Positions 6,124 to 64,000 of a stretch of DNA of 64,000 nt are shown here, in pieces (the first letter of the stretch is position 1; every line of letters starts with the position of its first letter). The translations under genes were made by a program, and so were the position numbers. The notes beneath the pieces were generated by a model. The model searched no databases, had not been told where the DNA came from, and saw only the letters and a list, made by a program, of their open reading frames with translations. Origin of the DNA: Acidimicrobiales bacterium (GTDB taxonomy: Bacteria > Actinomycetota > Acidimicrobiia > Acidimicrobiales > JBBRKR01); assembly GCA_038231795.1 (NCBI GenBank), contig JBBRKR010000004.1, positions 68,651-132,650 on the forward strand. Direction: 5' to 3'.

Positions 6124-6124
6124 C

Positions 6125-48162: not shown

Positions 48163-48234
48163 TCGGTCACCAAGTCAAATCTTGGTCTGGGCCAGTCGGC
48201 CACGTCAGTTGTGCATCGAGGCTACGGTGCAACC

Positions 48235-49194: not shown

Positions 49195-49227
49195 CACTGG
49201 TCACGTGGCCGTGGTAGAACAGTTCCT

Positions 49228-50004: not shown

Positions 50005-50017
50005 CGCTCTGTGGGGT

Positions 50018-50195: not shown

Positions 50196-50270
50196 TGCTG
50201 AGAAGTCCATACGCGAGCTACACGTCGGTGGCATTAGCCGGACCGCCGCCCTCCGCTTGCCGCCGACAGA

Positions 50271-50669
50271 TCAGATCTCGGCGATGACGTCGATCTCGAT
50301 CAGGCTCCGTGGATCGAAAAGCGACTGCACGCCGTACATCGTTGTGCTGGCGGTGGGCCAGTTTTCACCGAACACCTCTCCCAGGCCAGCGAACAGGCCC
50401 TCTGCCATCGACGGTTCCCAGCCCACAATGAGAAGGTTCATCCTCACGACATCGTCCCATGTGGCACCACCGGCAGCCAACGCTATTTCGACATTGCGCA
50501 GAGCCTTCGCAGCTTGCGACGCGAGGTCCGACCCAACGACTACACCGTCGGCGCCGACACCGGTCTGCCCAGCGATATACACACGACGAGTGTCAGACGC
50601 AATGACAACGTGCGCGTAGCCCACAGGCTTCACAAGCCCAGCAGGACGGATTATTTTCTCGATGCTCAT
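50271..50669 (-). CDS. RidA family protein (YjgF/endoribonuclease L-PSP fold)
   Basis: MSIEKIIRPAGLVKPVGYAHVVI...VYIAGQTGVGADG. Start set at the ATG at 50669. Confidence 0.8.
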   Translation of the reverse strand: MSIEKIIRPAGLVKPVGYAHVVIASDTRRVYIAGQTGVGADGVVVGSDLASQAAKALRNVEIALAAGGATWDDVVRMNLLIVGWEPSMAEGLFAGLGEVFGENWPTASTTMYGVQSLFDPRSLIEIDVIAEI

Positions 50670-50754
50670 TCCCGCAGTGTAATCACGGGCGTGAAGCGGT
50701 TCGTCGAGTAGCTCGGAGTCTCGCGGGTTGATCCGGGTCTGCGAGGCTACGTAC

Positions 50755-51729
50755 ATGCGCTATCGACGACTGGGCCGGACCGCTCTCCAGGTCAGCGAGC
50801 TGTGCCTCGGCACGATGAACTTCGGGCCCCAGACGCCCGAGGAAGAGTCGTTCGCGATCATGGACCGCGCCGTTGAGCTCGGAATCAACTTCTTCGACAC
50901 CGCGAACCGGTACGGCGGTGACAAGGGTGCCGGTGCCACCGAGTCGATTATCGGACGTTGGTTCGCCCAGGGCGGCGGCCGGCGGAACAAGATCGTCCTG
51001 GCGACGAAGCTATTCGGAGCAATGTCCGAGTGGCCCAATGACGGCCGACTCTCAGCGCGTCACATCCGCATGGCCTGTGAGGAGAGTCTGCGGCGGATGC
51101 AGACCGACCACATCGACCTTTACCAGATGCACCACGTTGATCGGACGGCACCATGGGAAGAGGTCTGGCAGGCGATGGACACCTTGATCCAGCAGGGCAA
51201 GATCACCTATGTCGGAAGCAGCAATTTCGCCGGCTGGCACATCGCTCGAGCCAACGAGGCTGCTGCCCGCCTCCACACGCTCGGACTGGTCAGCGAGCAG
51301 AGCCACTACAACCTCCTCGTCCGGACCGTCGAACTCGAGGTGCTGCCGGCGTGTCGCGAATACGGCGTTGGCGTCATCCCGTGGAGCCCGCTCTCGAGTG
51401 GCCTGCTCGGCGGCGTGCTTGGCGACTCGGACCGCGCTCGACGCCAGTCCCCCCAATCGTTGAAGCGGATCGACAAGCTGCGCCCGCAGCTGGAGCGATG
51501 GGAGATGCTGTGCGCTGACCTCGCTGAGGAGCCCGCAGCTGTGGCGTTGGCTTGGCTTCTCGCCCAAGATGGCGTCACCTGCCCGATCATCGGCCCCCGC
51601 ACCGTTGGCCAGCTCGACGGCGCGTCGCTGCGCTCTTTGGAAGTCACGCTTGATCCCGACACGCTACAAGCGATCGACGCCATCTTCCCCGGCCCCGGCG
51701 GCACTGCGCCCGAAGCGTACGCCTGGTAG
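50755..51729 (+). CDS. aldo/keto reductase
   Basis: MRYRRLGRTALQVSELCLGTMNFG, FFDTANRYG, and IDLYQMHHVD. Confidence 0.9.
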   Translation: MRYRRLGRTALQVSELCLGTMNFGPQTPEEESFAIMDRAVELGINFFDTANRYGGDKGAGATESIIGRWFAQGGGRRNKIVLATKLFGAMSEWPNDGRLSARHIRMACEESLRRMQTDHIDLYQMHHVDRTAPWEEVWQAMDTLIQQGKITYVGSSNFAGWHIARANEAAARLHTLGLVSEQSHYNLLVRTVELEVLPACREYGVGVIPWSPLSSGLLGGVLGDSDRARRQSPQSLKRIDKLRPQLERWEMLCADLAEEPAAVALAWLLAQDGVTCPIIGPRTVGQLDGASLRSLEVTLDPDTLQAIDAIFPGPGGTAPEAYAW

Positions 51730-51830
51730 CCGGTTCAACCGCGGCGAGCATCTGCTTCCCCGATTTCGCAGCGCCCCGGCGACCGTAACTGATGTGGCTA
51801 CCGGCGAGCATGCCGTTTATGGTGACCAGC

Positions 51831-52604
51831 ATGAACAGCCACTATCTTCCGTCGTTCTCCCTCGCGGGTCGGGTGGCTCTTGTCACCGGTGCGAGTCGCG
51901 GTATCGGGCGCGGGTTGGCCGAGGCGTTGGCTGCGGCCGGAGCGACGGTCGCCGTCACGGCCCGTGCGCGTGAAGACGCCCACGCTGTCGCAGATTCCAT
52001 CGTCACGGCGGGCGGTGTCGCCTCATCGCACACCCTCGATGTTCGCGATGTGGGGTCCATTCGGGCAGCGATCGAGGAGGTGGTCGATCGCTTCGGACGG
52101 CTCGACATTCTTGTCGCCAACGCAGGGCTCGGAGCCAACCATGCTGCCACCGACGTTACCGAGAACGACTGGGACGAGATGATGGCGGTCAACTCGAAAG
52201 GTCTGTTCTTCACGGCCCAAGCTGCTGGCAGGGTGATGGTCAACCAGGGGTGGGGCCGCATCATTGCGATTAGCTCCCAGGCTTCGTTAGTCGGCATTCG
52301 CGATCACGTCGTCTACTGCGCGTCGAAGGGTGCGGTGAACCAGATGGTGAGGGTTCTCGCCCTCGAATGGGGCGCGAGCGGAGTGACGGTGAACGCAGTC
52401 GCCCCCACGTTCATCTACACGCCGGGCACCGCCGATCGCCTCGATGACCCTGCGTACAGACGTACAGTCGTCGAACGGATTCCAATGGGCAAGGTCGGTG
52501 AGATTGCCGATGTCGCGGGGGCGGTGGTCTTCCTCGCGTCAGACGCGGCAGCCATGGTCAACGGTGTGATCCTGCCCGTCGACGGAGGTTGGACAGCGCA
52601 GTAG
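51831..52604 (+). CDS. SDR family oxidoreductase
   Basis: ALVTGASRGIGRG cofactor motif, NAG, and YCASKGAV catalytic motif. Confidence 0.85.
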   Translation: MNSHYLPSFSLAGRVALVTGASRGIGRGLAEALAAAGATVAVTARAREDAHAVADSIVTAGGVASSHTLDVRDVGSIRAAIEEVVDRFGRLDILVANAGLGANHAATDVTENDWDEMMAVNSKGLFFTAQAAGRVMVNQGWGRIIAISSQASLVGIRDHVVYCASKGAVNQMVRVLALEWGASGVTVNAVAPTFIYTPGTADRLDDPAYRRTVVERIPMGKVGEIADVAGAVVFLASDAAAMVNGVILPVDGGWTAQ

Positions 52605-52614
52605 ATCCCCACCC

Positions 52615-52660
52615 TCGGTTTTGATCGGGAAGGGTTACCGCACACCTGGAACAACTCGGG
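52615..52660 (+). repeat. possible short degenerate fragment of the repeat family (3' tail only)
   Basis: CCGCACACCTGGAACAACTCGG resembles the tails of R3 (CCGAACACCTAAACAAACTGG) and R5 (CCGAACACCTGAAACACTTG). The match is short and could be chance. Confidence 0.3.
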
Positions 52661-53177
52661 ATCCCGCTTCGAGCAAACGAGCTCAAAATAGCCGTTCACG
52701 ACGTTGTCGAAGTATTACGTCGGTATGACACATGGCAGTCCCCCGGCTGCCCTAGCAGGCGCCTTCAGCGTCGCCGACTCGGCCCCCGATAGCCGTCCCA
52801 TGTCCTTGGACCGGCGATCTGGGAAGAGAATGATGTCGATCTCGGCCCGGTTCCGCGCTCACGCAAGCGTCGATAGGTCCGCTCATTCCCGCACGATCCG
52901 ATCGCTCCGGACCATCTCTTGACAATCCGAAAACGTCGTTCGAGTCGCTAGCACAGCCAGGTACGGGGTCTCGTTCGGTCTGCTGGCGGTCGGCGTGGCG
53001 GGATAGTGGTGATCCGTGTAAATGTCAGGCAGGATGCGTTCGCGCGATGATGCTTCCCGCCCTCGTGCCACTACGTACAGCTTCACCGCCGGCAACTGGA
53101 TCGTCTACGACTTCGACTGGGCCAACGCCAACTGATGCCAGGATTGCCCGTCGTACTTCAGCCCCTAATGCCAATCC

Positions 53178-53661
53178 CTACCTTGACGCCAGCCGACCTT
53201 CGCTGCTAGCCGCGAAGTAGCAGGGGTACATGGCGGCTAGTTGGTCGGTGCCGCAATATTTGCACTTCGTCGCTGCTGGCACCAGGTCGTTGGACAAGCA
53301 TGCCGGACACGTCTTGACCGGGGCTGGCGAGCCGAACACAGTGACGCCTCGCTTCGCCGAGATTGCCTTGTACGGGATCACGATGGCGAAATACAACACG
53401 GCCACGAACACGATGAAGTAGATGACCGCAGAAATAAACGAGCCGAAATCCAAGAAGGTCTTGGCGTTGCCAGCGTCGCCTAGTTGTACGCCAAGCCCTG
53501 CCGCACTTTTACCCTGAACACGGTTCAGCAATGGATTGATCATGAAATCTGTGAAACGCCTTGATCAGCGTGCTGACTGCTAGCGCAACCATCAAGCCGA
53601 TCGCGATGACAATGACGTCACCGCGCAACAGAAAGTTCTTGAAACCCTTGATGATCGAATT
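53178..53661 (-). pseudogene. mscL: large-conductance mechanosensitive channel MscL with C-terminal zinc-ribbon-like tail; frameshifted and lacking a canonical start
   Basis: Upper ORF ...SIIKGFKNFLLRGDVIVIAIGLMVALAVSTLIKAF and lower ORF MINPLLNRVQG...FISAVIYFIVFVAVLYFAIVIPY...CPACLSNDLVPAATKCKYCGTD together make an MscL. The frames differ. Removing one base near 53553 restores KAFTDFMINPLLNR. The first codon is AAT/ATC where ATG is expected, after a GGGAGA Shine-Dalgarno sequence. Confidence 0.7.
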
Positions 53662-53899
53662 TCTCCCTACTGTGAGGTACTCGGGAATACGCACCTCAGC
53701 AGTACCCCAACTACACATCAACCTGGCTGTGGGGATGGAGCTTGGTGGGGCTTCGAACTTATTCAAGGTCTTCTTCATCGCCAAAAGAACGGGCATGAGC
53801 GACACCATGACCGGGTGGTTTGCCGCGTCGGCCTCCTGACCGGGCAAGGGGCCAACTTCCAACTTCCCACCTGACACAAACACCCGTCCCAGCATCCGC

Positions 53900-54025
53900 C
53901 CAGTTGCTGAGCAACTCGACGGCCAGAATTTCCACTGAGCAGATCAAACGTTGCAAATTTGGCAACGATCAGTGGACCTTATGGAACAGCTTTCAAACCC
54001 CACTCGCCGACCAGTACAACATCGC
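53900..54025 (+). repeat. structured repeat family, copy R1 (lacks the 5' arm)
   Basis: Hairpin AGTTGC-tga-GCAACT (53902-53916), CACTGAGCAGATCAA, palindrome GTTGCAAATTTGGCAAC (53950-53966), then GATCAGTGGACCTTATGGAACAGCTTTCAAACCCCACTCGCCGACCAGTACAACATCGC. Confidence 0.85.
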
Positions 54026-54050
54026 AGATGGCTTCAAACGAGGAACCGCT

Positions 54051-54455
54051 CGTCCGTCAATGAGTTTTGAATGCTCCGACACCGTTTGGGAATATTACGT
54101 GTCCGCTGTCGATGGGTTCGTGACGGTCACACCAGAGTACAACTACTCGACGTCCGGAGCGCTCAAAAATGCGCTGGACTACCTGTATCGAGAGTGGAAC
54201 GACAAGGCGGTCGGTTTCGTGTCCTACGGCAGCACTGGTGGAACTTGAGCTGTAGCACACCTCCGCCTCATCGCCGCTGAGCTCAAGCTTGCCGACGTGC
54301 GTGGGCAGGTTGCGTTGACGCTCGGCAGCGACTTCGAGGAGTACCGCACGTTCGTCCCAAACGAACGTGCTCGGCGATCGCCAGACGCCGTGCTCAGCGA
54401 GGTCCTCGCCTGGTCAACCGCACTCGCTGGTCTCCGCACAGCCCAGGAGAAATGA
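54051..54455 (+). pseudogene. NADPH-dependent FMN reductase, 5'-truncated and carrying an in-frame TGA
   Basis: RPSMSFECSDTVWEYYVSAVDGFVTVTPEYNYSTSGALKNALDYLYREWNDKAVGFVSYGSTGGT-TGA(54246-54248)-AVAHLRLIAAELKLADVRGQVAL... The Rossmann N-terminus (roughly the first 55 residues in homologues) is missing. The stop sits where homologues have Arg (CGA). Confidence 0.7.
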
Positions 54456-54536
54456 CGCTCGTCCACCTCGACCCGATCGGAAGCGTGTCAGTTCGCAGCC
54501 CCGGCCGGCCTTGGCGCTGCCTGGGAACCAGCAGCG

Positions 54537-54625
54537 TTACATTACGGACAGTTGATCGGTAACGCAGTATTTGCATTTCGTCGCGGCCGGCGCTGGATGG
54601 GGTGCAGCGAGACACCGAGCCCCAA
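54537..54625 (-). pseudogene. second, 3'-terminal remnant of an mscL-like gene (zinc-ribbon tail only)
   Basis: Minus translation FGVGARCLAAPHPAPAATKCKYCVTDQLSVM-stop parallels FGSPAPVKTCPACLSNDLVPAATKCKYCGTDQLAAM of the gene at 53178. Nucleotide similarity is visible (AGTTGATCGGTAACGCAGTATTTGCATTTCGTCGC versus AGTTGGTCGGTGCCGCAATATTTGCACTTCGTCGC). Confidence 0.55.
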
Positions 54626-54637
54626 CCCCGAATTATG

Positions 54638-54814
54638 CGCGAACGTAGACGAGAATGGACTGCTCCTTTGGGTTTGAAACAAGCGACGAACGTTATGTGG
54701 CGATCGAACACGCGCCACATACTCTGAACAGGTAAAACGTTGCAAATTTGGCAACAACTGGTGGGCCTTTTGGGACGACGTTCAAACCCCACTCCCCGAC
54801 CGGTCCAACGTCGG
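54638..54814 (+). repeat. structured repeat family, copy R2 (full length)
   Basis: 5' arm CTCCTTTGGGTTTGAAACAAGCGAC, hairpin ATGTGGCG(54695-54702)/CGCCACAT(54713-54720), palindrome GTTGCAAATTTGGCAAC (54739-54755), then AACTGGTGGGCCTTTTGGGACGACGTTCAAACCCCACTCCCCGACCGGTCCAACGTCGG. Confidence 0.85.
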
Positions 54815-54954
54815 ATTCACCGGCCGGACGTCGAGTTCTTAGTTGTTGAGTACAAGGGTGGAAGTGCGAAGCCGGTCGTCGGGACCTCCGATTCACGGAC
54901 GTCGCCCGAGTTACCCATCGTCGATGTAATGCTTGCTATACCGCAACTATTGCT

Positions 54955-55467
54955 ATGGTGCACGACGTGGCGAGAGAAGCGAGAGGCGATCCGATGTCGA
55001 TCGACAAGAACGCCGAGGACGCAGTTGTTTCCCTGGTGCTGACCACATCGAGGGCGTTGGTCGGTGTTGCAGCCCGATCGCTGAGCACACTCGGCGACGA
55101 TGTCACGCTGCCGCAGTATCGGGGCCTCGTTATCTTGGCGGCCCGCGGCCCCCAGGGCGTCGGCGCACTCGCCCAGGCCCTGTCCATCCATCCGTCGAAC
55201 GCAACCCGATTGTGCGATCGGCTTGCCCGCAAGCAGTTGATCGAACGTCACGTCTCGCAGGAGAGTCGCCGGGAAGTCACGGTGGCTGTGACCAGCGCTG
55301 GGAGGCAGCTACTGGCGGCAGTGACGAAACAGCGAGCGTCCGAGATCCGTGCGATCGTGCGCCTCATGCCGGTTGGTCAGTGGCCGCAAGTGGTCGGCGC
55401 TCTCGGTGTCTTTGCGGACGCTGCCGGCGAAGCGCCCGACGATGCGTGGAAGCTGGGTTGGACATGA
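54955..55467 (+). CDS. MarR family transcriptional regulator
   Basis: LPQYRGLVILAARGPQGVGALAQALSIHPSNATRLCDRLARKQLIER is a MarR winged HTH. Its stop overlaps the ClC start (ATGA). Start may be ATG 54994. Confidence 0.85.
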   Translation: MVHDVAREARGDPMSIDKNAEDAVVSLVLTTSRALVGVAARSLSTLGDDVTLPQYRGLVILAARGPQGVGALAQALSIHPSNATRLCDRLARKQLIERHVSQESRREVTVAVTSAGRQLLAAVTKQRASEIRAIVRLMPVGQWPQVVGALGVFADAAGEAPDDAWKLGWT

Positions 55468-56810
55468 ACTCCTCAAACTGGCTGCCTACGCACCGGCGCG
55501 AGGAACTTAGGGCGATAGCCACCCGCTCGCATCAGGTGGTGACCTTCGCGGCCGCGGTCGGCGTCATCACGGGATTGCTGGTCGCAGGGTTCGACCGCCT
55601 CGTCGTCGACGTTTTGATCGATCGGGTGCTGAAACTGTCGCCGTGGCTGATCGCATTCCTCCCCGGCATCGGTCTACTCGTTGCGTTCGCGTCACGTCGG
55701 TTCATAGGTGGTGGGGTTTCGGCATCCACAGCCGATGAGTATCTGCACGCGTTCCATGACAGGGAATATGTACTTGGGTGGCGGCCGTTCGTGGCCCGCA
55801 TGGTCGCGGCCGTCGCAACACTCGGTGCGGGCGGTCCAATGGGTTTGGAAGGCCCATCTATGTACTCCGGCGCCGTTTTCGGTTCCGCGCTGCAACGGCG
55901 TTTCCCGAGAGTTTTTGGGCAAGCAGACCGACGGATTCTGCTGGTCGCCGGCGCAGCGGCAGGAGTGGCGGCAATCTTCAAGGCGCCCGCCACTGGCGCC
56001 GTCTTCGCACTCGAAGTCCCCTACCAGGACGACTTGGCCCGTCGGATGTTGCTCCCCGCTTTGGTCGCCAGCGCGACCGGCTACCTCACGTTCGCCGCAA
56101 TCAACGGCACTACGCCGCTGTTCCACATCGAGAGTACCGCAGGGTTCGTTCTCCGTGACTTGCTCGGCGCGGTCGGGGTTGGATTGATCGCCGGTGTCGG
56201 CGCCCGCGGGTTCTCATGGATGCTCCGCAGGGCCAAGTCCTTGGCCGGCAAACCCCATCCAGTGTTCGGTGCCGTCGCCGCCGGCGTCGGGTTCGCAGGG
56301 ATGTTTGGCCTCGGACGCCTGCTCACCGGGCAGTCGCTGATGGTCGGCGCCGGCTATCAGGTCGTCGCCTGGGCATCGATCCCAGGACGCACAATCTGGC
56401 TGCTACTGGCGGTGCTTGCCCTTCGTTGCCTTGCGACCTCGGTCACCGTCGCAGGCGGCGGAGTCGGTGGTCTATTCATCCCGCTCGTGGTGAGCGGAGC
56501 GCTTACCGGTGCCGTCATCGGTACTGCGATCGACCAGTTCGACCTCAACCTGTTCATAATCGTCGGCGTCGCCGCGTTCCTGGGCGCCGGATACCGGGTC
56601 CCGCTGGCGGCGGTCGTGTTCATCGCCGAAACCACCGGACGACCCACCTTCGTCGTGCCCGGTCTTCTTGCGGCCGTCGCCGCGGAGTTGATGATGGGTA
56701 CCTCCTCGGTCACCAAGTATCAGCGGATCACCACCGTCACACTCTCAAGATCCCCCACGGAGGAGACCGCCAGGCTCGACGACGAACTGGAGAGCGGCCA
56801 CGACTCGTAA
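55464..56810 (+). CDS. voltage-gated chloride channel (ClC) family protein
   Basis: Polytopic membrane protein with GPMGLEGPSMYSG (G-x-E-G-P selectivity motif), GAGYRVPLAAVVFIAE and GGLFIP. Confidence 0.85.
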   Translation: MNSSNWLPTHRREELRAIATRSHQVVTFAAAVGVITGLLVAGFDRLVVDVLIDRVLKLSPWLIAFLPGIGLLVAFASRRFIGGGVSASTADEYLHAFHDREYVLGWRPFVARMVAAVATLGAGGPMGLEGPSMYSGAVFGSALQRRFPRVFGQADRRILLVAGAAAGVAAIFKAPATGAVFALEVPYQDDLARRMLLPALVASATGYLTFAAINGTTPLFHIESTAGFVLRDLLGAVGVGLIAGVGARGFSWMLRRAKSLAGKPHPVFGAVAAGVGFAGMFGLGRLLTGQSLMVGAGYQVVAWASIPGRTIWLLLAVLALRCLATSVTVAGGGVGGLFIPLVVSGALTGAVIGTAIDQFDLNLFIIVGVAAFLGAGYRVPLAAVVFIAETTGRPTFVVPGLLAAVAAELMMGTSSVTKYQRITTVTLSRSPTEETARLDDELESGHDS

Positions 56811-56929
56811 GGCGCCACACAGACGAGCACGGACCTTCCACCGATCGATCCGACCAACCCGGTGGGGCGATTCACGCACCGACAACCCGATGCAGACCGC
56901 CAGCGGATCCTTAACTCGTTGGCGGTCGG

Positions 56930-56985
56930 ACAACATAGGCATTGGCTAGGTCGGGTCTGCACTTAAAACACCTGCCAGGTGGGTT
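56930..56985 (+). repeat. possible internally deleted fragment of the repeat family
   Basis: ACATAGGCATTGGCTAGGTC resembles ACATAGGATCTGAGTAGGTACC of R3. AACACCTGCCAGGTGGGTTG resembles the R3 tail AACACCT...GGTAGGTGGGGG. Weak. Confidence 0.3.
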
Positions 56986-57034
56986 GATGCGGCGGTCGCT
57001 CGTGACCCCAAGCGCCGTTCGCATCGGTCTGGAC

Positions 57035-57117
57035 CCGTGCCAAGGACCGCCAGCCTGTTCACCCCGGAGGAAACGGGACAGCTTTCAAAACCCGCTCTCC
57101 GAACAGCGCAACGCTGG
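57035..57117 (+). repeat. structured repeat family, copy R6 (3' half)
   Basis: CGGAGGAAACGGGACAGCTTTCAAAACCCGCTCTCCGAACAGCGCAACGCTGG. Nested pairing CGGAG(57065-69)..CGGG(57074-77)/CCCG(57091-94)..CTCCG(57097-101). Confidence 0.7.
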
Positions 57118-57518
57118 CATCGCCCGTCGGCATCCCCGACCACACTGCCGCTGCCCACCTACAGCACCACGGGATAGCCCGACGTCCCTCGACCCGCGCA
57201 AGATGATCGACGTGGAGGTAGATGCACTCCCCACGACAATGCTCGGCAGTACAGATTGCGCTGCGCTCGTGGCGCAATGTTGCGACAACGCTCGCGGGGT
57301 ATGGGTCTGTGAGCACCGCATCACCATCACGGACGCAGCCGGCACCATCATCGAGAGCGATGAAGAGACTGGGGCAGCGGATGCGGGCATCTCAGTCCGC
57401 ACAGGAGGCACGGTTCGATATCGGTCGAATCCATCGCCGGGTTCTGGACGTTCGCGATCGTCCGTCGGAGGCTCTGGTGTCTTCGAATTGGGGGATTAGC
57501 GAGACTAGCGTCGCTGGC

Positions 57519-58199
57519 ATGAGCGAAATCGATCACGCCGCGATACACCGAGGTGTACGTGTCCGCATCACAGCTCTCGTGTGCGAGCTTTCGGAGGAGA
57601 TGCTTGATTTCGTTGCGCCCGCAACCCCGGAGTGGCGGGTTCGCGATGTTGTGGCCCACCTCGCGGGTGGCGCGGCTGACGTTGTATCCGGCAACCTCGC
57701 CGATGTGGCGAGCGATTCCTGGACCGGCGCTCAGGTAGATGCCCGGAGGAACCTGACGGTCGGCGAGGTACTCGATGAGTGGGCACGTTGCAGTGCGATC
57801 GTCGAGCCGCTCATCGCGACGTTCGACCCGCTTCTGCGCGCCATGCTGCTGACAGACGCGGTTACGCACGAGCATGATCTGCGCGGTGCGCTCGGGGTTG
57901 CAGGTGAGCGCGAATCCGATGCGATTGCGTACGCATTCCGCGGTGTTTCCGGTGGTATCGGAGCGCAACGCGGCGATACAGGCGCGCTGCGCATCCTGCA
58001 CGAGGCTGGCGAGTCGGTCGTCGGAACCGGCGCACCGACGGCCACGGTGCACACGACGCGTTTCGAGATCGTTCGGGCGAGCGTCGGTCGCCGCTCCTAC
58101 GAGCAGATCAAGGCGTGGGATTGGGAGGGCAATAGTCAACCAGAAACCGTGGTGCTCGCACGGTTCGCTCCCGCGCGGCTCACCCCGCTCGAGGAGTAG
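57519..58199 (+). CDS. maleylpyruvate isomerase family mycothiol-dependent enzyme (DinB/MDMPI fold)
   Basis: Start at ATG 57519. EWRVRDVVAHLAGG and DAVTHEHDLRGALG are typical of the TIGR03083-type family. Confidence 0.7.
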   Translation: MSEIDHAAIHRGVRVRITALVCELSEEMLDFVAPATPEWRVRDVVAHLAGGAADVVSGNLADVASDSWTGAQVDARRNLTVGEVLDEWARCSAIVEPLIATFDPLLRAMLLTDAVTHEHDLRGALGVAGERESDAIAYAFRGVSGGIGAQRGDTGALRILHEAGESVVGTGAPTATVHTTRFEIVRASVGRRSYEQIKAWDWEGNSQPETVVLARFAPARLTPLEE

Positions 58200-58223
58200 A
58201 TCCATCCCCGGATCGAGCACCGT

Positions 58224-58900
58224 TCATGACGTCCCACTCAGCGAGTTTGCAGGCCCGACTTCGCATAGACCAGCACGCAGAGCCGGCGTTATACGAGTGG
58301 TCTGTGCCTTTGAAACGCGCCGGGCGGGTACATCGACGGCGCCGACCCCCTGAACCCCGAATCGAGCGAGAGACGCAGTGAGGAAGCGACTCGGTCGGCG
58401 ATCTGCGCAAGCCCGATCGAGTCGAGACGGAACTGTTGCGTTGTCGGATTGCGTCAGCCGCCGGAGTCGGTATGTGGTGTCGATGTCGAATTCGTAGTGA
58501 TTGCGGCGAATGTTCTGGATCAATTCTTGGCCCCTGACGACGGTGCTCGCGGTGCCGTGGCGTGTCAACCTGCGCGTCATTCGGAGTATTGTGACACGCG
58601 TCCAGTACCAGCTCGTCAATCGCTCTCACCAAACCCGCTGGCCGGTCGGTGACCACCTCACTCGGTTGGCCACGCAAACGCCGGTGGCCAATGCTGGTCG
58701 ATCGCCACCGTGGAGGAGACCAATGCAAGAGCACCGAGGACGAAAGGGAAGGGACGAACCACAAGCCGGTGCGCAACGAATCGCGAAGCCGAGCCACTCC
58801 CACGCTTCCCCGTTCGCAAGTTGAGGTTCGGTCGCATTCCACACCGCAACTATCAACCATCCATAGCGCACCCAGAAGAGGCACTTCGGCACCGGACTCG
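58224..58900 (-). pseudogene. probable decayed membrane-protein gene (coding signal scattered over three minus-strand frames)
   Basis: Overlapping minus ORFs carry TM-like pieces (LRTGLWFVPSL / PFVLGALALVSSTVAIDQHW / LFWVRYGWLIVAVW). No single frame stays open. Family unknown. Confidence 0.25.
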
Positions 58901-58960
58901 ACCGTGCCGGCGGAGTAGCGTTTCGTCCAGAGGGTTGTCCTCACGAAACGGAGTAACGAC

Positions 58961-59572
58961 ATGACTAGTTTCCGCCAACTGCACACCGGCGCCATGGCCG
59001 TCGCGAGCGACGGCGACGTCGGGTCGGTCGTGGCGCTCGTAGTCGATCCAACCACTCGGACCGTGACCCACCTCCTCGTAAAGAACGCGAACGTCCCCGC
59101 AAGCAGCCGGGTCGTCCCCGTAGAATACATACGATCAACCGAGCACGAGCGCGTCCTGCTCGACCTCACACGGGCGGAAGTGCTCGACGAGCAGCGATTT
59201 ATTCAACCCGAGTGGATCCCTGTCGAGCCCTACCCGAAGGGCTTCATGAGCTACTGGCTACAGGGCGGCCAGTCGTTCGCGGTTAGCGAGCACCTGCCAA
59301 GCCAGGGCGACCTCGCTCTCCGCAAGGGGGTCGAGGTCCGTTCGAGCGACGGCCACCACCTCGGAACGGTCGACGAGATCCTCGTCGACGACACCGGCTC
59401 TATCAAGCAGTTCGCCCTCCGCGAAGGACACCTCTTCGGCCACCGTACCGTCATCGTCCCGATCGATCAGGTGCAAGCGATGAACGAGCATTTCATCCAG
59501 CTCGGCATCGACCGCTCAACTGCCGAGCAACTGGCCAGCGAGAACCTGGGCGGGCCTGCTACCAGCCGTTAG
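58961..59572 (+). CDS. PRC-barrel domain protein (two PRC barrels)
   Basis: 203-aa ORF with VASDGDVGSVVALVVDPTTRTVTHLLV and SSDGHHLGTVDEILVDDTGSIKQFAL, two PRC-barrel-like units. Confidence 0.75.
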   Translation: MTSFRQLHTGAMAVASDGDVGSVVALVVDPTTRTVTHLLVKNANVPASSRVVPVEYIRSTEHERVLLDLTRAEVLDEQRFIQPEWIPVEPYPKGFMSYWLQGGQSFAVSEHLPSQGDLALRKGVEVRSSDGHHLGTVDEILVDDTGSIKQFALREGHLFGHRTVIVPIDQVQAMNEHFIQLGIDRSTAEQLASENLGGPATSR

Positions 59573-59888
59573 TGAACATTTGGTGCCACCACAAAGACCG
59601 GTCGATCAGTAAACTCGAGGAGGTGTTCGGTCTGGCTCCCGACGTGGCGGCTCCCCAGCCGTCGGCCATCCGGGCGACCTATGATGATCAAATCCGCGCA
59701 CTCTGTACGGCATTGGCCAGGACGGTCCTACCGAATACAAGTACACACCCGCGCCCTGGTTGGCGGGATCGACGTGAACGCGATCGACCGATTGGACCTG
59801 CCATCACTGTGTCACATAACGCCGGATCGGGCGCTCGTGCCACGCTGTCGAGGACGGCCGGCGGCGGAACTCCGAGGGCGCAGCGTTC

Positions 59889-60433
59889 CTAGGCTCGTGT
59901 GACCGGCAGTACCGTCGGGCCACGGATCGATAGCGATCGCTTCCATTCTGTCGTTGCCGGATCGAGCTGGTAGTCGCCGAACGCTTCCAGGAATGCGGGG
60001 ATTGCGACCCGGAGCTCGAGGCGGGCGAGTGAAGCGCCCAGGCAGTGGTGAATACCATGACCGAACGACAGCGGCTTAGGGTCGGGGCGGTCGAGTCGGA
60101 GCTTGTCGGCGTCGGGCCAGCGTCGGACAGTTGAGAATAGGGCCGGACGTCCATCAAAACGTTCACCGCCGAACTGACCGACAACTCCGGCGAACGGAGC
60201 AGTTCGAGCGCCTCGTCGTACCCGACCACGAACCACCGGCGAAACACCTTGTGGTAATAAACCTGGCCGTACTTTTGGCGCACCGCCTCGAGCGATCGAT
60301 ACGGATCGACGTAGTAGTCCGGGTCGAACGGACTCTCATCGTGCGTCAGCCGGAACAGCGCATGCGCAAGCCGAGGCCGTTTGGCCAAAAGTCGAACAGC
60401 AGGAATGGCGATCTGTTCGATGCGCATCGTCAA
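59889..60433 (-). pseudogene. cytochrome P450 with a large internal deletion and frame change
   Basis: N-terminal part PFDPDYYVDPYRSLEAVRQKYGQVYYHKVFRRWFVVGYDEALELL (frame of 59804..60433). C-terminal part WPDADKLRLDRPDPKPLSFGHGIHHCLGASLARLE (frame of 59889..60236). Together they span about 545 bp, where the intact P450 at 43692 needs 1248 bp. Confidence 0.75.
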
Positions 60434-60869
60434 CTGACTCCCTGCGTCTCAGCGTCGCCTCGGCGGCGGCGTCCTAGCCCTACCAACGGCAGACGATCAG
60501 CCAGGTCGGCCTTAGCTCTTCCTCCGCGATTGCGGTGTTGCCTCGAATGGTCAGCTGGGCTCATATCGGGACGTCAGCCGTATCGCGATCGATGCGACCA
60601 AGTGGTTGGTGCTGGTGCGTGGCATGCTGACCGGGCTGGCTTCTGCCCGACGGTGTAGGTGGTTGCGTGATGACAACGAGGTCAAGCCGCTGTCCGACGT
60701 CTGATATCACCGCCTCTCGGCTCGCCTCGACTGCGATAGACCTCGCAGAATGAGAAGCATCTGGTAGCGCAGATAGCTCGCCGGAAGCGAGCGCGCATCC
60801 GGCGATCTGCGCCGAGAGGATGCGCTGGGCGGCTGCGGCGCCGGGGCCGGCTCCCCGAACCTGAGACTA

Positions 60870-61050
60870 GGCAGACATCAGTGGCGGAGGACCAATCCTC
60901 AGGGTTTGAAAGAAGCGACAGACAACATCACTACCGGACTCGGGACATAGGATCTGAGTAGGTACCACGTTGTAATTTTGACAACGATCGGTGGACTTTA
61001 CGGGACGGCTTTCAAACCCTTCCGAACACCTAAACAAACTGGTAGGTGGG
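60870..61050 (+). repeat. structured repeat family, copy R3 (full length)
   Basis: 5' arm with AGGGTTTGAAAG (60901-60912), palindrome variant GTTGTAATTTTGACAAC (60969-60985), GATCGGTGGACTTTACGGGACGG, CTTTCAAACCCT (61009-61020), and tail TCCGAACACCTAAACAAACTGGTAGG. Confidence 0.85.
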
Positions 61051-61099
61051 GGTGTCGAACGTCTCGCCGCCCGCCATTCGGGCCTTCGGAATCCATCAC

Positions 61100-61220
61100 G
61101 ATGCCGCACCGCGCCCGCGGCCAACAACACCCGGCAGCTCACCGGAGCGCTGCCACGCAACGACGCGATCTCACGATTCAGCTGCTCGCCAAGAACCCAC
61201 GCGGTGACGAGTTCAGTCAT
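61100..61220 (-). pseudogene. N-terminal fragment resembling a cryptochrome/photolyase-related (COG3046-type) protein
   Basis: ATG at 61220 followed by MTELVTAWVLGEQLNREIASLRGSAPVSCRVLL, the (V/I)LGDQL start typical of that family. The reading frame then runs into repeat R3. Confidence 0.35.
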
Positions 61221-61316
61221 GGGTCGACGTCTTTCTGGCGGCGGGGATTCGACAGGTATAGTAAAGATCGTGTTCGCGACCCACGCCTGCAAAACCAAAC
61301 GTCGGTGACTTGCGGC

Positions 61317-62228
61317 ATGTTGATCCGAGAGCTGCAGGACAAGGTCGTCGCGTCGACGGTGGCGCTGTTCTCGCACGGTCCCCAACCACTCGCCAACACC
61401 CTTGACTTCCGTGGCGATCCTGGACTGCTCGGCCCGGACTCAGTGTCATGGCGAGTCATCGGCGACGCCGCCGCATTCGTTGGCGGCATCCGCGCGCTAC
61501 TCGTTCAGACAGCCCATCCCGAAGTGGTCGCAGGGGTGGAACAGCATTCACGGTACCGATCCGACCCGCTCGGCCGCTTGTCACGAACCTCGGTGTACGT
61601 CACCGAAACCACCTACGGCGCGCTCCCCGAAGTCAACGCGGCGGTCGCCGCCGTCCGGCGAGCTCACGGACCGGTGCATGGTCAATCCGAACGCGACCGG
61701 GCCTATAGCGCCGGGAACCCAGCGATGGCGGCCTGGGTGCACAACGTGCTGACCGATTCTTTCCTCTCGGCGTACCAAACGTTTGGGCCGTGCCCGCTCA
61801 GCGTGAACGAGGCCGACCGGTTCGTCGCCGAGCAGACGCGGATCGGGGCATTGCTCGGCGCTTCGCCGCTCCCATCCACCGCCGACGAGCTCGCTTGTTG
61901 GATCGTCGAGCACCCGGCACTCGCAAGTACCCGCGACCAGTCAGCGGCGGTCGAGTTCCTGCGCAATCCGCCGCTTCCCATCCCGGTGCGAGTCGGCTAC
62001 CGCCTGCTCTTCCAGGCTGCGGTAACAACCATCCCTACCGTCATTCGCAACATCACCGGGTTGACCCCGGCCCGGGGTGCGACCCCGGTCGGGACCGCCG
62101 CCGTTCGCAGCTTGCGATGGGCCCTCGGTTCTTCGCCTTCGTGGCATCTTGCGCTCGTACGGACCGGGGCACCGGTGCCTGCGGGCATGTTCCGTCAACC
62201 ACTGCCCGCCGCTCGAGACATTGAGTAG
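61317..62228 (+). CDS. DUF2236 (MpaB-type oxygenase) family protein
   Basis: Start ATG 61317 (MLIRELQDK). GPDSVSWRVIGDAAAFVGGIRALLVQTAHPEVVAGV is the DUF2236 signature. Confidence 0.8.
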   Translation: MLIRELQDKVVASTVALFSHGPQPLANTLDFRGDPGLLGPDSVSWRVIGDAAAFVGGIRALLVQTAHPEVVAGVEQHSRYRSDPLGRLSRTSVYVTETTYGALPEVNAAVAAVRRAHGPVHGQSERDRAYSAGNPAMAAWVHNVLTDSFLSAYQTFGPCPLSVNEADRFVAEQTRIGALLGASPLPSTADELACWIVEHPALASTRDQSAAVEFLRNPPLPIPVRVGYRLLFQAAVTTIPTVIRNITGLTPARGATPVGTAAVRSLRWALGSSPSWHLALVRTGAPVPAGMFRQPLPAARDIE

Positions 62229-62255
62229 GGTATTTTGACTCGGGAGGTGCAGGCC

Positions 62256-62717
62256 GTGTCACGGGAACCGAAGGCGGTAGCAGAAGGCCAGGACGAGCGG
62301 TTGCAACGAGCGATCGGCATGGCTGTAGAGGTGCGGGCGAGCGCTTACGCCCGCTACTCCGGGTTCGCGATGGGCGCCGCAGTGGTCGGCATCGACGGGC
62401 GCACGACGCGCGGCGTGCTCGTGGAGAACGTGTCCCTCGGTCTGTCTATGTGCGCCGAGCGCGTTGCGATGTTCTCTGCGGTCACCGAGGCGATCGCGCC
62501 TGTGGTGCTCGCCTTGTGCGCGCCGAGAACGGGAGGCCAACTCACGTTTCCTTGCGGGGCGTGCCTGCAGGTCGGTCTCGAGGTCGCCGGCACAGAGCTA
62601 CTGGTCGTTGCTGTCGATCCCGACGGCGCTTATGACTGGGCGCCACTCGTGACGTTGCTGACTCGAGCGCCGAAGCGGCACACCCCGGTCACGGGACCGA
62701 GGGCCCCGACAAAATGA
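62256..62717 (+). CDS. cdd: cytidine deaminase
   Basis: GTG 62256 preceded by GGGAGG. YSGFAMGAAV, zinc ligand motifs CAERVA and PCGACLQ. Confidence 0.75.
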   Translation: MSREPKAVAEGQDERLQRAIGMAVEVRASAYARYSGFAMGAAVVGIDGRTTRGVLVENVSLGLSMCAERVAMFSAVTEAIAPVVLALCAPRTGGQLTFPCGACLQVGLEVAGTELLVVAVDPDGAYDWAPLVTLLTRAPKRHTPVTGPRAPTK

Positions 62718-62924
62718 TCGGTCGCCGGGCAACCGGCTACGCTCCACGACCAGGAGCGCCCTTCCTCGAAGCGCGGCGGTTGCGGCAAGGTGCAGCGCGT
62801 CGTCGGAGGGCGAGGGGCTCAAGAAGCAACCGATCCACCGCGAGTTCGGTCTCGGCAGCTTCGATAGCGACCATGTCCGATGGGCGCCCACCTACCCATC
62901 TTGCCGCGACATCCCGGCGATACG

Positions 62925-62965
62925 ACACGGACCCTTCGTATCTTTCGAACCCTGCCTCCGAATAG
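62925..62965 (+). repeat. structured repeat family, fragment R7 (3' hairpin region), abutting R4
   Basis: CACGGACCCTTCGTATCTTTCGAACCCTGCCTCCGAA parallels GGTGGACTTTACGGGACGGCTTTCAAACCCTTCCGAA of R3. Confidence 0.6.
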
Positions 62966-63060
62966 GTCAAATAGGCCGATCTCGTTTTGATTTCTACGAC
63001 ACCGAGTGGACCTTATGGGACGGCTCTCACGCCCCATTCCCCGACATGTGCAACGTCGCC
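62962..63060 (+). repeat. structured repeat family, copy R4 (degenerate palindrome plus 3' half)
   Basis: ATAGGTCAAATAGGCCGATCTCGTTTTGATTTCTACGACACCGAGTGGACCTTATGGGACGGCTCTCACGCCCCATTCCCCGACATGTGCAACGTCGCC. Confidence 0.8.
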
Positions 63061-63329
63061 TCGGCTGCGCTGAGATCGACACCATTATCAGCAATTATCA
63101 ATCCGGGCGCTCGTCCCGCGCGATCGCCAAACTCATAGGCGTCCACCGATCGCGAAAGCGCTCCAATCACGGGCATAAGCGCAGATATGGGTACGTAGGC
63201 CGAGAGACCGATGGCGCAGATCTGTGGGAGGGTGTTCTGCACGGAAACCCGACGCCACTTTCTCCCGGGGCGCATAGCCGGGTCTGTTTAAGGCAGCTGG
63301 CTCAATCGCAGCACATGGGTGTCCAGTGA
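63006..63329 (+). pseudogene. ORF that initiates inside repeat R4 and contains an HTH-like segment (transposase/resolvase-type); probably a remnant
   Basis: VDLMGRLSRPIPRHVQRRLGCAEIDTIISNYQSGRSSRAIAKLIGVHRS. The pattern x-I-x2-Y-x-S-G-x-S-x-RAIAK-x2-GV-x-RS is typical of HTH_7/IS-type N-terminal HTH domains. The rest is Arg/His-rich junk, and its 3' end overlaps the convergent SDR gene. Confidence 0.3.
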
Positions 63330-64000
63330 GACGACCTCGTCAGCCCGTGCGGCGAGTTCGTGCCAGTCGTCGACCGCTGCCCTGATGTAGCGGCCCGAGA
63401 GGGCGTCCAACATCCCAGAGTCGATATCCGTGATCAGATCCAAGGACTTGTCGACCGGCGTCCATGTGTCCGCGTCGTCCCACACGTGGGCGAAGGCGGC
63501 CGCGGTCATGTCGGTCTTCACCATTCCAGGAGAAATCGCGAAAACCCGGACCCCAGCACTGTGACATTCACCGGCAACCGCTTCGGTAAAGCGGTTCACC
63601 GCGGCTTTGCTCGCCATGTAGGCAGAGGTGAGAAGCCCGTCGTTGTCGAGTCCCACCGGAAAGGTTGCCGCACCGGAGGAAAGGTTGATGATCCTGCCGC
63701 TGCCTCGCGCCATCATCGGCGCAAGCACTGCTCGGGTGCACAAGTAGGTGCCCCGCACGTTGATTTCGAACACCTGCCACCAATCCGACTCCGTCAGCTC
63801 CCAAGTCTTGCCGCTGCCCCCTGACACGGCCGCGTTGTTCACCAGCAGATCCGGCACACCCAACTCGTCCATAATATGCCCGAATACTGCCTCGACGGCG
63901 ACGGGATCGGCGACGTCCAGGACGAATGGAACGGCACCGGATCGACCCGCGACCTCGTTGAGATCGGTCTCCGAGCGCCCGATCGCCGCCACCGTCAGGC
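63288..64000 (-). CDS. SDR family oxidoreductase (5' end beyond the right edge of the window)
   Basis: LVNNAAV, NLSSGAA and YMASKAAVNRF catalytic motif. The Rossmann N-terminus is not within the window. Confidence 0.8.
   Translation of the reverse strand, partial: LTVAAIGRSETDLNEVAGRSGAVPFVLDVADPVAVEAVFGHIMDELGVPDLLVNNAAVSGGSGKTWELTESDWWQVFEINVRGTYLCTRAVLAPMMARGSGRIINLSSGAATFPVGLDNDGLLTSAYMASKAAVNRFTEAVAGECHSAGVRVFAISPGMVKTDMTAAAFAHVWDDADTWTPVDKSLDLITDIDSGMLDALSGRYIRAAVDDWHELAARADEVVSLDTHVLRLSQLP

Follow-up and report, generated by a model that had tools for sequence, protein, structure and literature searches.

Repeats in an Acidimicrobiales accessory segment as probable boundary modules of a decayed tandem array

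The actinomycete integrative elements pSAM2 and SLP1 possess long att identity segments, which cover the 3′ end of a tRNA gene. CIMEs are att-flanked units without recombination genes of their own; they form tandems with related elements and arise when site-specific accretion is followed by deletion, the known examples being from Firmicutes. Tandem accretion of integrative elements and CIMEs derived from ICEs and IMEs have been reviewed (PMC5812530, PMC5704250). In tycheposon islands, partial tRNAs flank the integrated elements, successive integrations push older ones inward and degenerate remnants accumulate; in Prochlorococcus, integration occurs at the 3′ side of tRNAs, and cargo together with additional att-type repeats fills the islands (bioRxiv 10.1101/2020.12.28.424599).

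The repeats in the 64-kb window (the whole stretch of DNA analysed here) are interpreted as modules that mark the boundaries of co-oriented cargo units in a foreign island undergoing decay, not as a jumping element. As in tycheposons, related Acidimicrobiia loci display tRNAs that are whole or reduced to the 3′ half, an excisionase alongside a tyrosine integrase, and cargo units separated by co-oriented repeats. In contrast to tycheposons, the repeat has a length of about 170 nt, far beyond that of a partial tRNA, it comprises a conserved trailer together with the 5′ end of a conserved gene for a double helix-turn-helix (HTH) protein, its core is not recognisable as a tRNA fragment, and the host belongs to a different phylum than Prochlorococcus. 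Moreover, the window itself is devoid of tRNA genes, and five related queries detected no remnant of an integrase, excisionase or transposase in it; the connection to tRNA and integrase is therefore drawn from homologous modules in other genomes. As in CIMEs, the units would be att-flanked, would lie in tandem with relatives after loss of their recombination genes, and would go back to accretion and subsequent deletion; a difference is that no conjugation or mobilisation genes were seen here. Host phylum, a tyrosine recombinase integrase, a tRNA 3′ end as target and att identity beyond the tRNA are shared with pSAM2 and SLP1, but the typical replication and transfer genes of these elements were not found, and the present arrays consist of small cargo-only units. 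Integron cassette arrays are similar in that co-oriented, recombination-site-like repeats divide small cargo units. However, intI and attC boxes are absent here, gene orientations are mixed and the arrays are anchored at tRNA genes.

Repeat copies and anatomy of the module

The repeat family is real and comprises six copies, which all lie on the plus strand inside the GC-rich segment at 50–63 kb. No further copy was found elsewhere in the 64-kb window.

47239–64000, no strand: foreign GC-rich accessory segment holding all copies (62–66% GC, GC3 0.7–0.8).
50022–50190, plus strand: full junction module R50k (nhmmer E 3e-44, sequence, fold); L-part 50022–50133, junction GCGG 50134–50137, then type-B core LGGLTNPPEHLK...
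53931–54025, plus strand: partial module R1 (nhmmer E 7e-20, model positions 76–167; sequence; translation); 3′ half of the L-part including hairpin CGTTGCAAATTTGGCAACG, GTGG 53972–53975, type-A core MEQLSNPTRRPVQHR; HTH gene body deleted.
54644–54865, plus strand: full module R2, the repeat itself at 54644–54817 (nhmmer; HMM positions 35–63, weak); L-part 54644–54760, GTGG 54761–54764, type-A core reading GRRSNPTPRPVQRR, and a decayed remnant of the first HTH domain to about 54865 (PDVEFLVVEYKGG versus TDVEIDHLVLEYQTG in locus L014).
57066–57197, plus strand: weak partial copy and weak HTH remnant (HMM 67–95, i-E 0.04).
60876–61049, plus strand: full module R3 (nhmmer E 1e-48, sequence, fold); L-part 60876–60990, GTGG 60991–60994, type-B core GRLSNPSEHLNKL; HTH gene body deleted.
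62934–63329, plus strand: R7+R4 (nhmmer, HTH_38, HMM 40–77 with i-E 3e-5); type-B core remnant (about 62945–62975), 3′ half of the L-part (about 62975–63005), GTGG 63006–63009, ATG at 63015, type-A core MGRLSRPIPRHVQRRL, then what is left of HTH domain 1 (63039–63152).

The full module of about 170 nt is composed of a non-coding L-part of about 110 nt, the GTGG junction and the core. The L-part starts with a small hairpin and GGGTTTGAAAG, contains a conserved GAGCGAnCGGACA block and ends in the terminal hairpin CGTTGyAAwTTTGrCAACG. The core, (A/G)CCTT ATG GGA CGG CTT TCA AAC CC..., provides the ribosome site as well as the first codons (MGRLSNP...) for a 149-aa double-HTH protein, whose family is found in metagenome genomes of Acidimicrobiia (57 homologues, typically of 149 aa, nearly all with the MGRLSNP start). 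Correspondingly, the 3′ part of the window repeat codes for MGRLSNP..., followed by HTH remnants which differ in length. The weak copy at 57066–57117 is the remnant of an internal (second) core of the two-motif HTH gene, EETGQLSKPALRTAQR, and lacks an L-part; it reaches an nhmmer E of only 0.18, yet reads EETGQLSKP, as compared to EETGRLSNP in the second motif of the family genes. R7 and R4 had been described in the first-pass annotation as paired partial copies followed by an HTH remnant, which is confirmed by the HTH_38 and HMM matches listed above. The partial copy at 62934–63063 contains an 11-nt insertion, and the R7+R4 ORF continues out of register to 63329. The core of R50k, a module situated between the convergent HpcH aldolase and RidA genes, holds a perfect 7-bp inverted repeat (GGGAGGG-N8-CCCTCCC). 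A further motif, TTTCAAACCC, occurs three times per module, once inverted; speculatively, the HTH protein may bind this motif and serve the element in regulation or as an accessory factor.

An 11-bp inverted repeat near the two ends (GGGTTTGAAAG...CTTTCAAACCC), together with the broken genes adjoining the copies, would be compatible with a small non-autonomous transposable element, MITE- or IS-like, which underwent many insertions with adjacent deletions. However, such an element is very improbable. The inverted repeat does not reach the edges but lies about 15 and 25 nt inside them, and pairwise identity among the copies amounts to merely 67–81%. The copies are all co-oriented and restricted to the island, and a transposase linked to the repeat was found in none of 60 loci. 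Neither target-site duplications nor shared flanking tetranucleotides, which had been suggested as a check, were found at the copies. Lacking terminal inverted repeats, target-site duplications and transposase, the co-oriented and island-confined repeat gives no support to the initial proposal of an element that inserts and then promotes adjacent deletions. As a conserved protein gene has its 5′ end in the 3′ part of the repeat, IS or MITE identity was rejected.

On the plus strand, folding surpasses that of shuffled sequences in two of the three full copies (z −2.1 and −2.3), both the ribosome site and the start codon would fall inside a long-range helix, and the T-G pair of the conserved hairpin is tolerated only in plus-strand RNA. 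These properties would suit a structured non-coding RNA, conserved for its structure either as a cis-regulatory leader of the HTH gene or as a tRNA trailer RNA, which we nevertheless consider quite improbable. The third full copy folds no better than shuffles (z +0.2), the position of the inner hairpin is not conserved, and no Rfam match was obtained even to E 5. In an RNAalifold analysis of 20 family members, only the invariant 5-bp hairpin was kept, with no compensatory pair. There is no support for the module as a structured RNA.

The module at tRNA genes of related Acidimicrobiia

A genome scan for the hairpin yielded 26 loci. Nine of these belong to Acidimicrobiia and carry the whole element, often in several co-oriented copies. 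The L-part up to GTGG represents a constant end, whereas its right neighbour varies: whole tRNA-Val, tRNA-Ala or tRNA-Leu genes on the opposite strand, a 3′ half, scars or the HTH gene. A whole tRNA-Val(TAC) adjoins the L-part in L003 and L025, while in L021 and L013 only the 3′ half of the tRNA follows, from the anticodon loop onward. Similarly, L051 has a whole tRNA-Ala(CGC) beside the L-part; in L042, L049 and L050, the 3′ half of this tRNA occupies that place. In L024, the adjoining tRNA-Leu is accompanied by a stacked acceptor-end scar, and in L043 the HTH start is separated from the L-part by three stacked scars of the tRNA-Val end; stacked scars of this kind measure 12–20 nt. The L-part lies beside tRNA 3′ ends and 3′ halves as at an attachment-site remnant. 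Compared with the reverse-complemented 3′ end of tRNA-Val, the core shows no significant similarity (p 0.1–0.9), and only the register GTGG-N7-GGGAC is common to both.

In L034 and L035, backbone is followed by a partial L-part with an intact HTH gene, a primase-like gene, an excisionase, a tyrosine integrase, tRNA-Val and again backbone. Here the HTH gene is the distal gene of a xis/tyrosine-integrase element at tRNA-Val, which displays the 7-bp sequence CGGGTGG at both ends. The contiguous L-part-core-HTH arrangement of L034 is split in L032 (HTH 6083–6541, L-part 10927–11013) by 4.4 kb of cargo, and both pieces keep the same 28-nt core. L032 is circularly permuted relative to L034, with this shared core as the pivot. 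In L032 and L025, arrays of at least three co-oriented modules with a spacing of 2–5 kb can be observed, and co-oriented modules in related genomes divide cargo units of about 2–5 kb. Recombination involving the copies, the other process proposed in the first-pass annotation, is likely, as indicated by the permutation between L032 and L034 and by the stacked tRNA-end scars at the L-part of L043 and L024.

A non-mobile paralogous family would attribute the same arrangement to ancestry. The repeat would then be promoter, leader and 5′ end of HTH regulator genes, duplicated segmentally with their neighbours and later turned into pseudogenes, and the tRNA would mark the ancestral location with no site-specific recombination involved. 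In the L-part, a TAATTT box and a GGTGGA ribosome site are plausibly spaced relative to the ATG, the differing lengths of the HTH remnants suit independent decay, two units resemble a duplication that takes in the flanking mscL, and the window lacks an integrase. However, one and the same L-part end occurs in combination with four different tRNA genes, with 3′ halves of tRNAs and with stacked scars of tRNA ends, an integrase element is bounded by an intact HTH gene, L032 and L034 are circularly permuted around the 28-nt core, and cores retain DNA-level conservation even when lacking the ATG (L041, L052). A non-mobile origin is thus rather unlikely.

Hardly any credence is given to an integron-like cassette array, with the module as an attC-like folded site and an integron-type integrase encoded elsewhere. 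Co-oriented sites do divide small promoter-less or mixed cargo units, toxin-antitoxin and resistance-type cargo is present in related arrays, and an imperfect inverted repeat surrounds a variable part. However, RYYYAAC/GTTRRRY boxes are absent, the central part of the module is better conserved than its ends, cargo genes occur in both orientations and the window contains no IntI-like gene. The sole linked integrase, that of L034, shows the domain set usual for phage integrases and is located beside an excisionase at a tRNA.

With respect to the L-part of an integrative unit, L034 suggests a model in which it is the chromosomal flank of the tRNA and would not be duplicated by each integration. 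L032 and L025 suggest that it travels with the unit, which fits the window; against this, L034 has no L-part between integrase and tRNA. Neither an excised circle nor an empty site was observed.

Truncated genes and probable erosion at unit borders

Pseudogenes are common throughout the GC-rich segment. The following lie in its repeat-bearing part:

53227–53655 (approximately), minus strand: first mscL, frameshifted near 53540 (Pfam MscL split over two frames).
54087–54456, plus strand: FMN reductase pseudogene (homology to intact P0058).
54501–54625, minus strand: second mscL remnant, about the last 29 codons and a 38-nt trailer.
60152–60433, minus strand: cytochrome P450, N-terminal approximately 95 residues (PDB matches).
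61103–61220 (approximately), minus strand: photolyase-related remnant (DPRP, PF04244), N-terminal approximately 37 codons (homology).

Three truncated genes have their broken end about 20–65 nt from a repeat copy. The FMN reductase pseudogene matches its closest intact homologue, P0058 (190 aa), with 83% identity from residue 68 (window position 54087) and thus lacks the N-terminal 67 of 190 residues; DNA homology spans 54098–54430, and an in-frame TGA is found at 54246–54248. This truncation adjoins R1 as initially reported, but the gap is about 60 nt instead of about 25 bp, since R1 ends at 54025 and protein homology starts at 54087. The second mscL piece (54501–54591) is 76% identical to 53189–53280 (E 1e-9). 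Its minus-strand reading, ...PAATKCKYCVTDQ, leaves only about the last 29 codons and the trailer, and the break (about 54614–54625) faces the 5′ edge of R2 at a distance of 20–30 nt, in agreement with the earlier description. Likewise, the N-terminal photolyase-related stub beside R3 was recovered: residues 3–39 correspond to the N-terminal start of DPRP (PF04244) proteins (57% identity, E 7e-5), and the break and the 3′ edge of R3 are about 55 nt apart. The P450 fragment, in turn, has a broken end which faces no repeat; its 16 PDB matches are all P450 N-termini (best E 0.005), and the remainder is lost or out of frame. By our own rough binomial, calculated after the fact for about six independent break points, 12 repeat edges and 13.3 kb, three of about six break points within 65 nt of a repeat edge correspond to p of about 0.004.

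The window probably holds a tandem array of degraded integrative units, in which the truncations are deletions that took the HTH gene or unit ends plus neighbouring cargo. After formation of the array, every HTH gene would have been deleted or eroded; frameshifts and nonsense mutations are present (mscL, FMN reductase). Starting at a unit end or inside the HTH gene, which was dispensable, deletions would have run into adjacent cargo, leaving truncated genes against the surviving part of the module. In two cases, the FMN reductase and the photolyase-related gene, truncation and repeat "end" are better explained as two sides of one deletion, which would have taken the HTH gene body and then entered the neighbouring cargo gene; adjacency would therefore be partly inherent in how the repeat boundary is defined. 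With the repeats as unit-boundary modules, the broken genes alongside would represent erosion at unit borders, an already familiar pattern. The original notion that the repeat shapes the accessory segment holds insofar as the copies mark its places of rearrangement.

The first mscL is the cargo gene at the end of the unit preceding R1. It is frameshifted relative to intact 142-aa homologues, to which it is 93–94% identical, and its DNA is 87.6% identical to L056–L058, where the 142-aa gene is intact. Two units share the mscL 3′ end and the module and would thus be paralogous units which have lost different parts. Apparently intact cargo of the segment includes genes for an epimerase, a 2-hydroxyacid dehydrogenase, HpcH aldolase, RidA, an aldo-keto reductase, an SDR, MarR, a ClC channel, a maleylpyruvate-isomerase-like gene, a PRC-barrel gene, MpaB, cytidine deaminase and a second SDR.

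Repeat copies in the window and the make-up of the module

Repeat finding, combined with a profile search built on the three longest copies, revealed six repeat copies in the window, all of them on the forward strand. When the whole 64 kb was searched, no copy was found outside a segment that starts near 47.2 kb, extends to the end of the window and displays a G+C content of 62–66% versus 57–58% in the housekeeping part. Pairwise identity among the copies is only 67–81%, and two kinds of 3' end can be distinguished, type A (...NPTPRPVQRR) and type B (...NPPEHLK).

Repeat copies detected by the profile search
50022–50190, forward strand: full copy, type B (50.1 kb)
53931–54025, forward strand: partial copy R1, type A (54.0 kb)
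54644–54817, forward strand: full copy R2, type A (54.8 kb)
57066–57117, forward strand: partial copy, weak match, type A (57.1 kb)
60876–61049, forward strand: full copy R3, type B (61.0 kb)
62934–63063, forward strand: partial copy, type A (63.0 kb)

Copies in other genomes show that the 5' part of the repeat, about 110 nt in length and here termed L-part, is non-coding. From 5' to 3' it contains a small hairpin, then GGGTTTGAAAG and a GAGCGAnCGGACA block, and finally two further hairpins, the first poorly conserved and the second invariant. Within the L-part, the box TAATTT and the site GGTGGA are spaced like a promoter and a ribosome site and may act as such, while GGGTTTGAAAG is an 11-bp inverted partner of the core. 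The core follows a GTGG junction and reads (A/G)CCTT ATG GGA CGG CTT TCA AAC CC..., corresponding to the ribosome site and the first codons (MGRLSNP...) of a helix-turn-helix (HTH) gene. Intact versions of this gene in loci L015, L028, L032 and L034 of other genomes encode a 149-aa protein, which contains two HTH domains (HTH_7/HTH_38) and ends with ...IRPRRGW. Its 57 homologues are nearly all metagenomic, the sole one with an organism name belonging to Acidimicrobiales. As a speculation, the protein might bind a thrice-repeated TTTCAAACCC motif. No copy in the window is able to encode the full 149-aa protein; every HTH gene is eroded, each to a different extent, and the best remnant (63039–63152) covers HMM positions 40–77.

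In some members of the HTH family the GRLSNP motif is doubled, being present at the N-terminus and again just ahead of the first HTH (L014; twice in L025). This doubling explains the two types of 3' end, the absence of an intact gene from the window and the head-to-tail pair R7/R4 at 62.9–63.3 kb. The latter had been described as two partial copies followed by an HTH remnant, and indeed what is left of a type-B core is followed there by an L-part reduced to its 3' half, a core of type A and a clear HTH domain 1 remnant. R1 and R2 look like products of deletion between the two motifs (GGGACGGCTTTCAAACCC at the DNA level). Preservation of GGGACGGCTTTCAAACCC at synonymous positions and in copies devoid of the ATG (L041 and L052) suggests that it constitutes a DNA-level site. 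The 18-nt GGGACGGCTTTCAAACCC occurs twice, about 140 nt apart and in one reading frame, at 6481–7000 of L014 and at 3729–4097 and 6063–6400 of L025 (minus strand), and window positions 62945–63060 are listed alongside these as a site of the doubled motif.

Several further observations concern the same segment. In the 50-kb copy, the type-B core harbors an inverted repeat whose 7-bp arms match perfectly and are separated by 8 nt (GGGAGGG CTTACAAA CCCTCCC, 50145–50166), a geometry like that of tyrosine-recombinase core sites; the other copies have one mismatch. An AT-rich stretch devoid of genes at 46980–47240, coinciding with a jump in G+C and GC3, probably marks the left border of the foreign segment; neither a module copy nor a tRNA fragment was recognised there. 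In a plasmid collection, 49–64 kb found no match. Exact-protein searches returned no record for MarR or the terminal SDR, and HpcH matched solely a 2.9-kb contig assembled from reads. Two stretches inside the array are unassigned, namely 52604–53227, in which an HTH-family match at 52634–52726 is very weak (i-E 0.11), and 56810–57066, which immediately precedes the core remnant at 57.1 kb and may contain the first half, now decayed, of the HTH gene at that position.

The first option of the first-pass annotation was an element which inserts and then promotes deletions nearby. Such a transposable repeat, a MITE or an IS, is unlikely, as the inverted repeat is subterminal with none at the exact ends, the sequences on either side of each full copy, inspected by eye, reveal no shared target-site duplication, a transposase was not found, all copies point the same way and lie in the same segment, and the start of a gene makes up half of the repeat. 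An ORF at 58224–58619 (minus strand, 131 aa), situated in a region without assignable gene (58200–58960), appeared transposase-like by eye and was rejected as an IS remnant for want of Pfam or NCBIfam support.

Truncated genes beside the copies

Three broken gene ends face a repeat edge at a distance of 20–65 nt, in line with the earlier observation that truncated genes adjoin the repeats. According to a rough, post hoc binomial estimate, the probability that three of about six break points lie that near one of 12 edges is about 0.004.

Gene remnants facing a repeat edge
from 54087: FMN reductase, beginning at the position equivalent to residue 68 of its closest intact relative
54501–54625, minus strand: second mscL piece, about the last 29 codons and the trailer
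61103–61220, minus strand: photolyase-related gene, matching residues 3–39 of DPRP-family proteins (PF04244)

The FMN reductase beside R1 is truncated as proposed, judged from its alignment with P0058, the closest intact relative (190 aa, 83% identity), and the gap between the two, given earlier as 25 bp, is nearer 60; the remnant also contains an in-frame TGA at 54246–54248. The cut of the second mscL copy at R2 and the reduction of the photolyase-related gene to its N-terminus by R3 were both recovered. The first mscL copy is frameshifted relative to intact 142-aa homologues with 93–94% identity, and the P450 can be recognised only over about 95 residues at its N-terminus.

Since the breaks of the FMN reductase and the photolyase-related gene are located on the HTH side of the core, each can be attributed to one deletion, and the apparent end of the repeat and the break of the gene would be the same event. 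Such a single deletion would take the body of the HTH gene and run on into the next gene. The mscL remnant is situated at the other edge, that of the L-part, and its position could reflect chance or selection for an intact L-part.

In the genomic contexts of the closest intact FMN reductase (L055) and mscL genes (L056–L060), homology to the window does not extend past the borders of the genes, and these loci lack the module. Comparison with these intact relatives confirms the truncations and does not provide synteny. The intact mscL homologues with 93–94% identity overlap tail-to-tail with a tyrosine recombinase gene (Phage_int_SAM_1 and Phage_integrase; L056 2314–3796, L057 1103–2516). No remnant of this integrase is found in the window, where homology stops at the borders of mscL.

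Features adjoining the L-part in related loci

Searching 185,579 species genomes for the conserved hairpin CGTTGYAAWTTTGRCAACRA yielded 26 loci, nine of which are Acidimicrobiia metagenome-assembled genomes. The rest of the element is confined to these nine, often with several copies within 8 kb, which are co-oriented in every multi-copy locus. Across the loci, the end of the L-part up to GTGG is constant and its right-hand neighbour is variable.

Features following the L-part
L003, L025: whole tRNA-Val(TAC), opposite strand
L021, L013: 3' half only of tRNA-Val, from the anticodon loop onward
L051: whole tRNA-Ala(CGC)
L042, L049, L050: 3' half of tRNA-Ala(CGC)
L024: tRNA-Leu(TAA) behind 15 nt that duplicate its acceptor end
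L043: three stacked 10–14-nt tRNA-Val end scars, then the HTH start
remaining loci: HTH gene

The tRNA-Val 3' half in L021 and L013 is the classical remnant of tRNA-gene integration. Between the L-part and the next feature, tRNA acceptor-end fragments of 10–20 nt, each starting with GTGG, can be observed in tandem stacks (L043 at about 1700–1800, minus strand; L024 at 2810–2860 and 170–230), which look like scars of repeated recombination at a tRNA 3' end.

In L034, L035 and L038, a conserved backbone of NAGPA, UbiA, FAD oxidase and SDR genes is followed by a partial L-part with an intact HTH gene, variable genes, a primase-like gene, an excisionase, a tyrosine integrase and a tRNA-Val (minus strand), after which the backbone resumes. 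CGGGTGG stands at either end of the stretch between HTH start and integrase end. L028 shares the NAGPA-UbiA backbone and the same HTH gene, but its DNA differs on both flanks of the latter. The L-part, core and HTH gene, contiguous in L034, are split in L032 into an HTH part (6083–6541) and an L-part (10927–11013) with 4.4 kb of transporter cargo in between, and the same 28-nt core (GTGGACCTTATGGGAGGGCTTTCAAACC in L034) is present at both places. In terms of sequence, this arrangement corresponds to the circular permutation expected if a circle of L-part, core, HTH gene and cargo had used its core to recombine with a target resembling that core; it is the most informative of the comparisons and the sole indirect sign of excision or integration. 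L032 and L025 contain at least three co-oriented modules at intervals of 2–5 kb, with toxin-antitoxin, acetyltransferase, transporter and regulator genes as cargo, and the array of L025 terminates at tRNA-Val. L034 suggests that the L-part is a chromosome flank; L032, L025 and the window suggest that it travels with the unit. That the copies merely belong to a purely paralogous, non-mobile family of regulators is rather improbable, as tRNA halves, scars and permutation would be left unexplained.

A tRNA 3'-end register can be imposed on the core (GTGG, 7 nt, GGGAC, then TC(G/A)AACC past an insertion of 4–5 nt), the window cores having only the GTGG-N7-GGGAC register in common with tRNA ends. 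Local alignment to three tRNA-Val sequences was not significant against shuffles; accordingly, the core is not claimed to be a decayed tRNA 3' end and the likeness is treated as a positional analogy only. A structured RNA is not supported either: RNAalifold on 20 family members retains only the invariant 5-bp hairpin, without covariation. Rfam yielded nothing, either for the whole window at the gathering score or for 49.5–64 kb at E up to 5, and single-sequence folds of the module had a mixed outcome.

A probable decaying array of cargo units

Most likely, the window segment represents an array of units, each composed of core, HTH gene (where retained), cargo and L-part, with junction modules between them.

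Proposed units of the array
50.1–54.0 kb: RidA, aldo-keto reductase, SDR, mscL
54.0–54.8 kb: FMN reductase remnant, mscL remnant
54.8–57.1 kb: MarR, ClC
57.1–61.0 kb: isomerase-like gene, PRC-barrel gene, P450 remnant
61.0–63.0 kb: photolyase-related remnant, MpaB, cytidine deaminase
from 63.0 kb: further unit

The first two units are paralogous, both ending with an mscL 3' end and a module and having lost different parts. Decay of the array is directly visible in the erosion of the HTH genes, the frameshift in mscL and the nonsense codon in the FMN reductase. The repeat copies are thus most likely junction modules of a decaying tRNA-type island. Of the proposal that an element shapes this segment, recombination at the copies stands and the inserting element does not. 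Truncated genes next to repeats are what erosion at junctions between units would be expected to produce and give no evidence for a deletion-promoting transposon, and the finding explains both assembly and present decay of the accessory segment.

The connection of the window with tRNA and integrase is made solely through homology of the module with other genomes. ARAGORN detects no tRNA in the 64-kb window; since the array reaches the window edge, a tRNA could lie beyond 64000. No site-specific recombinase is found among the ORFs scanned at 47–64 kb, and tblastn of the window with two related integrases, the excisionase, the primase-like protein and two transposases gave no match. An integron cassette array fails as an explanation: by eye the module is devoid of RYYYAAC...GTTRRRY attC boxes, the window contains neither intI nor any other integrase, and the gene orientation does not fit.

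Tandem accretion of integrative elements with later loss of recombination genes produces the same overall pattern as this array. In tycheposon islands, partial tRNAs flank integrated elements, newcomers push older ones inward and remnants accumulate (bioRxiv 10.1101/2020.12.28.424599), which matches our reading. The overall pattern is hence already known. A narrow literature search (genomic islands, tRNA, integrase) found no description of such mobile elements in Acidimicrobiia. It is conceivable, albeit a long shot, that they possess an undescribed integron-like, tRNA-anchored cassette system, in which small cargo units lacking a recombinase would be captured and shuffled in trans via a site of about 170 nt (L-part and core); the core would double as the start of the double-HTH protein, which would bind the thrice-repeated motif and control junction recombination or expression. 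If the units are mobile in trans, the module would offer a means of following gene flow in a lineage that is abundant in soil and freshwater and known mostly from metagenomes. The L-part hairpin together with GTGGACCTTATGGGACGGCTTTCAAACCC can serve as a sequence tag for island and unit borders in Acidimicrobiia.

Elsewhere in the window, two 90-nt direct repeats with 79% identity (16707–16796 and 21222–21311) enclose a 4.4-kb stretch with a G+C content of up to 67% (18–20 kb). CTGAGCCGATCCAAACGTTGCC, present in both, is similar to a portion of the L-part. Situated among housekeeping genes, this stretch may be a second, separate insertion with att-like repeats.
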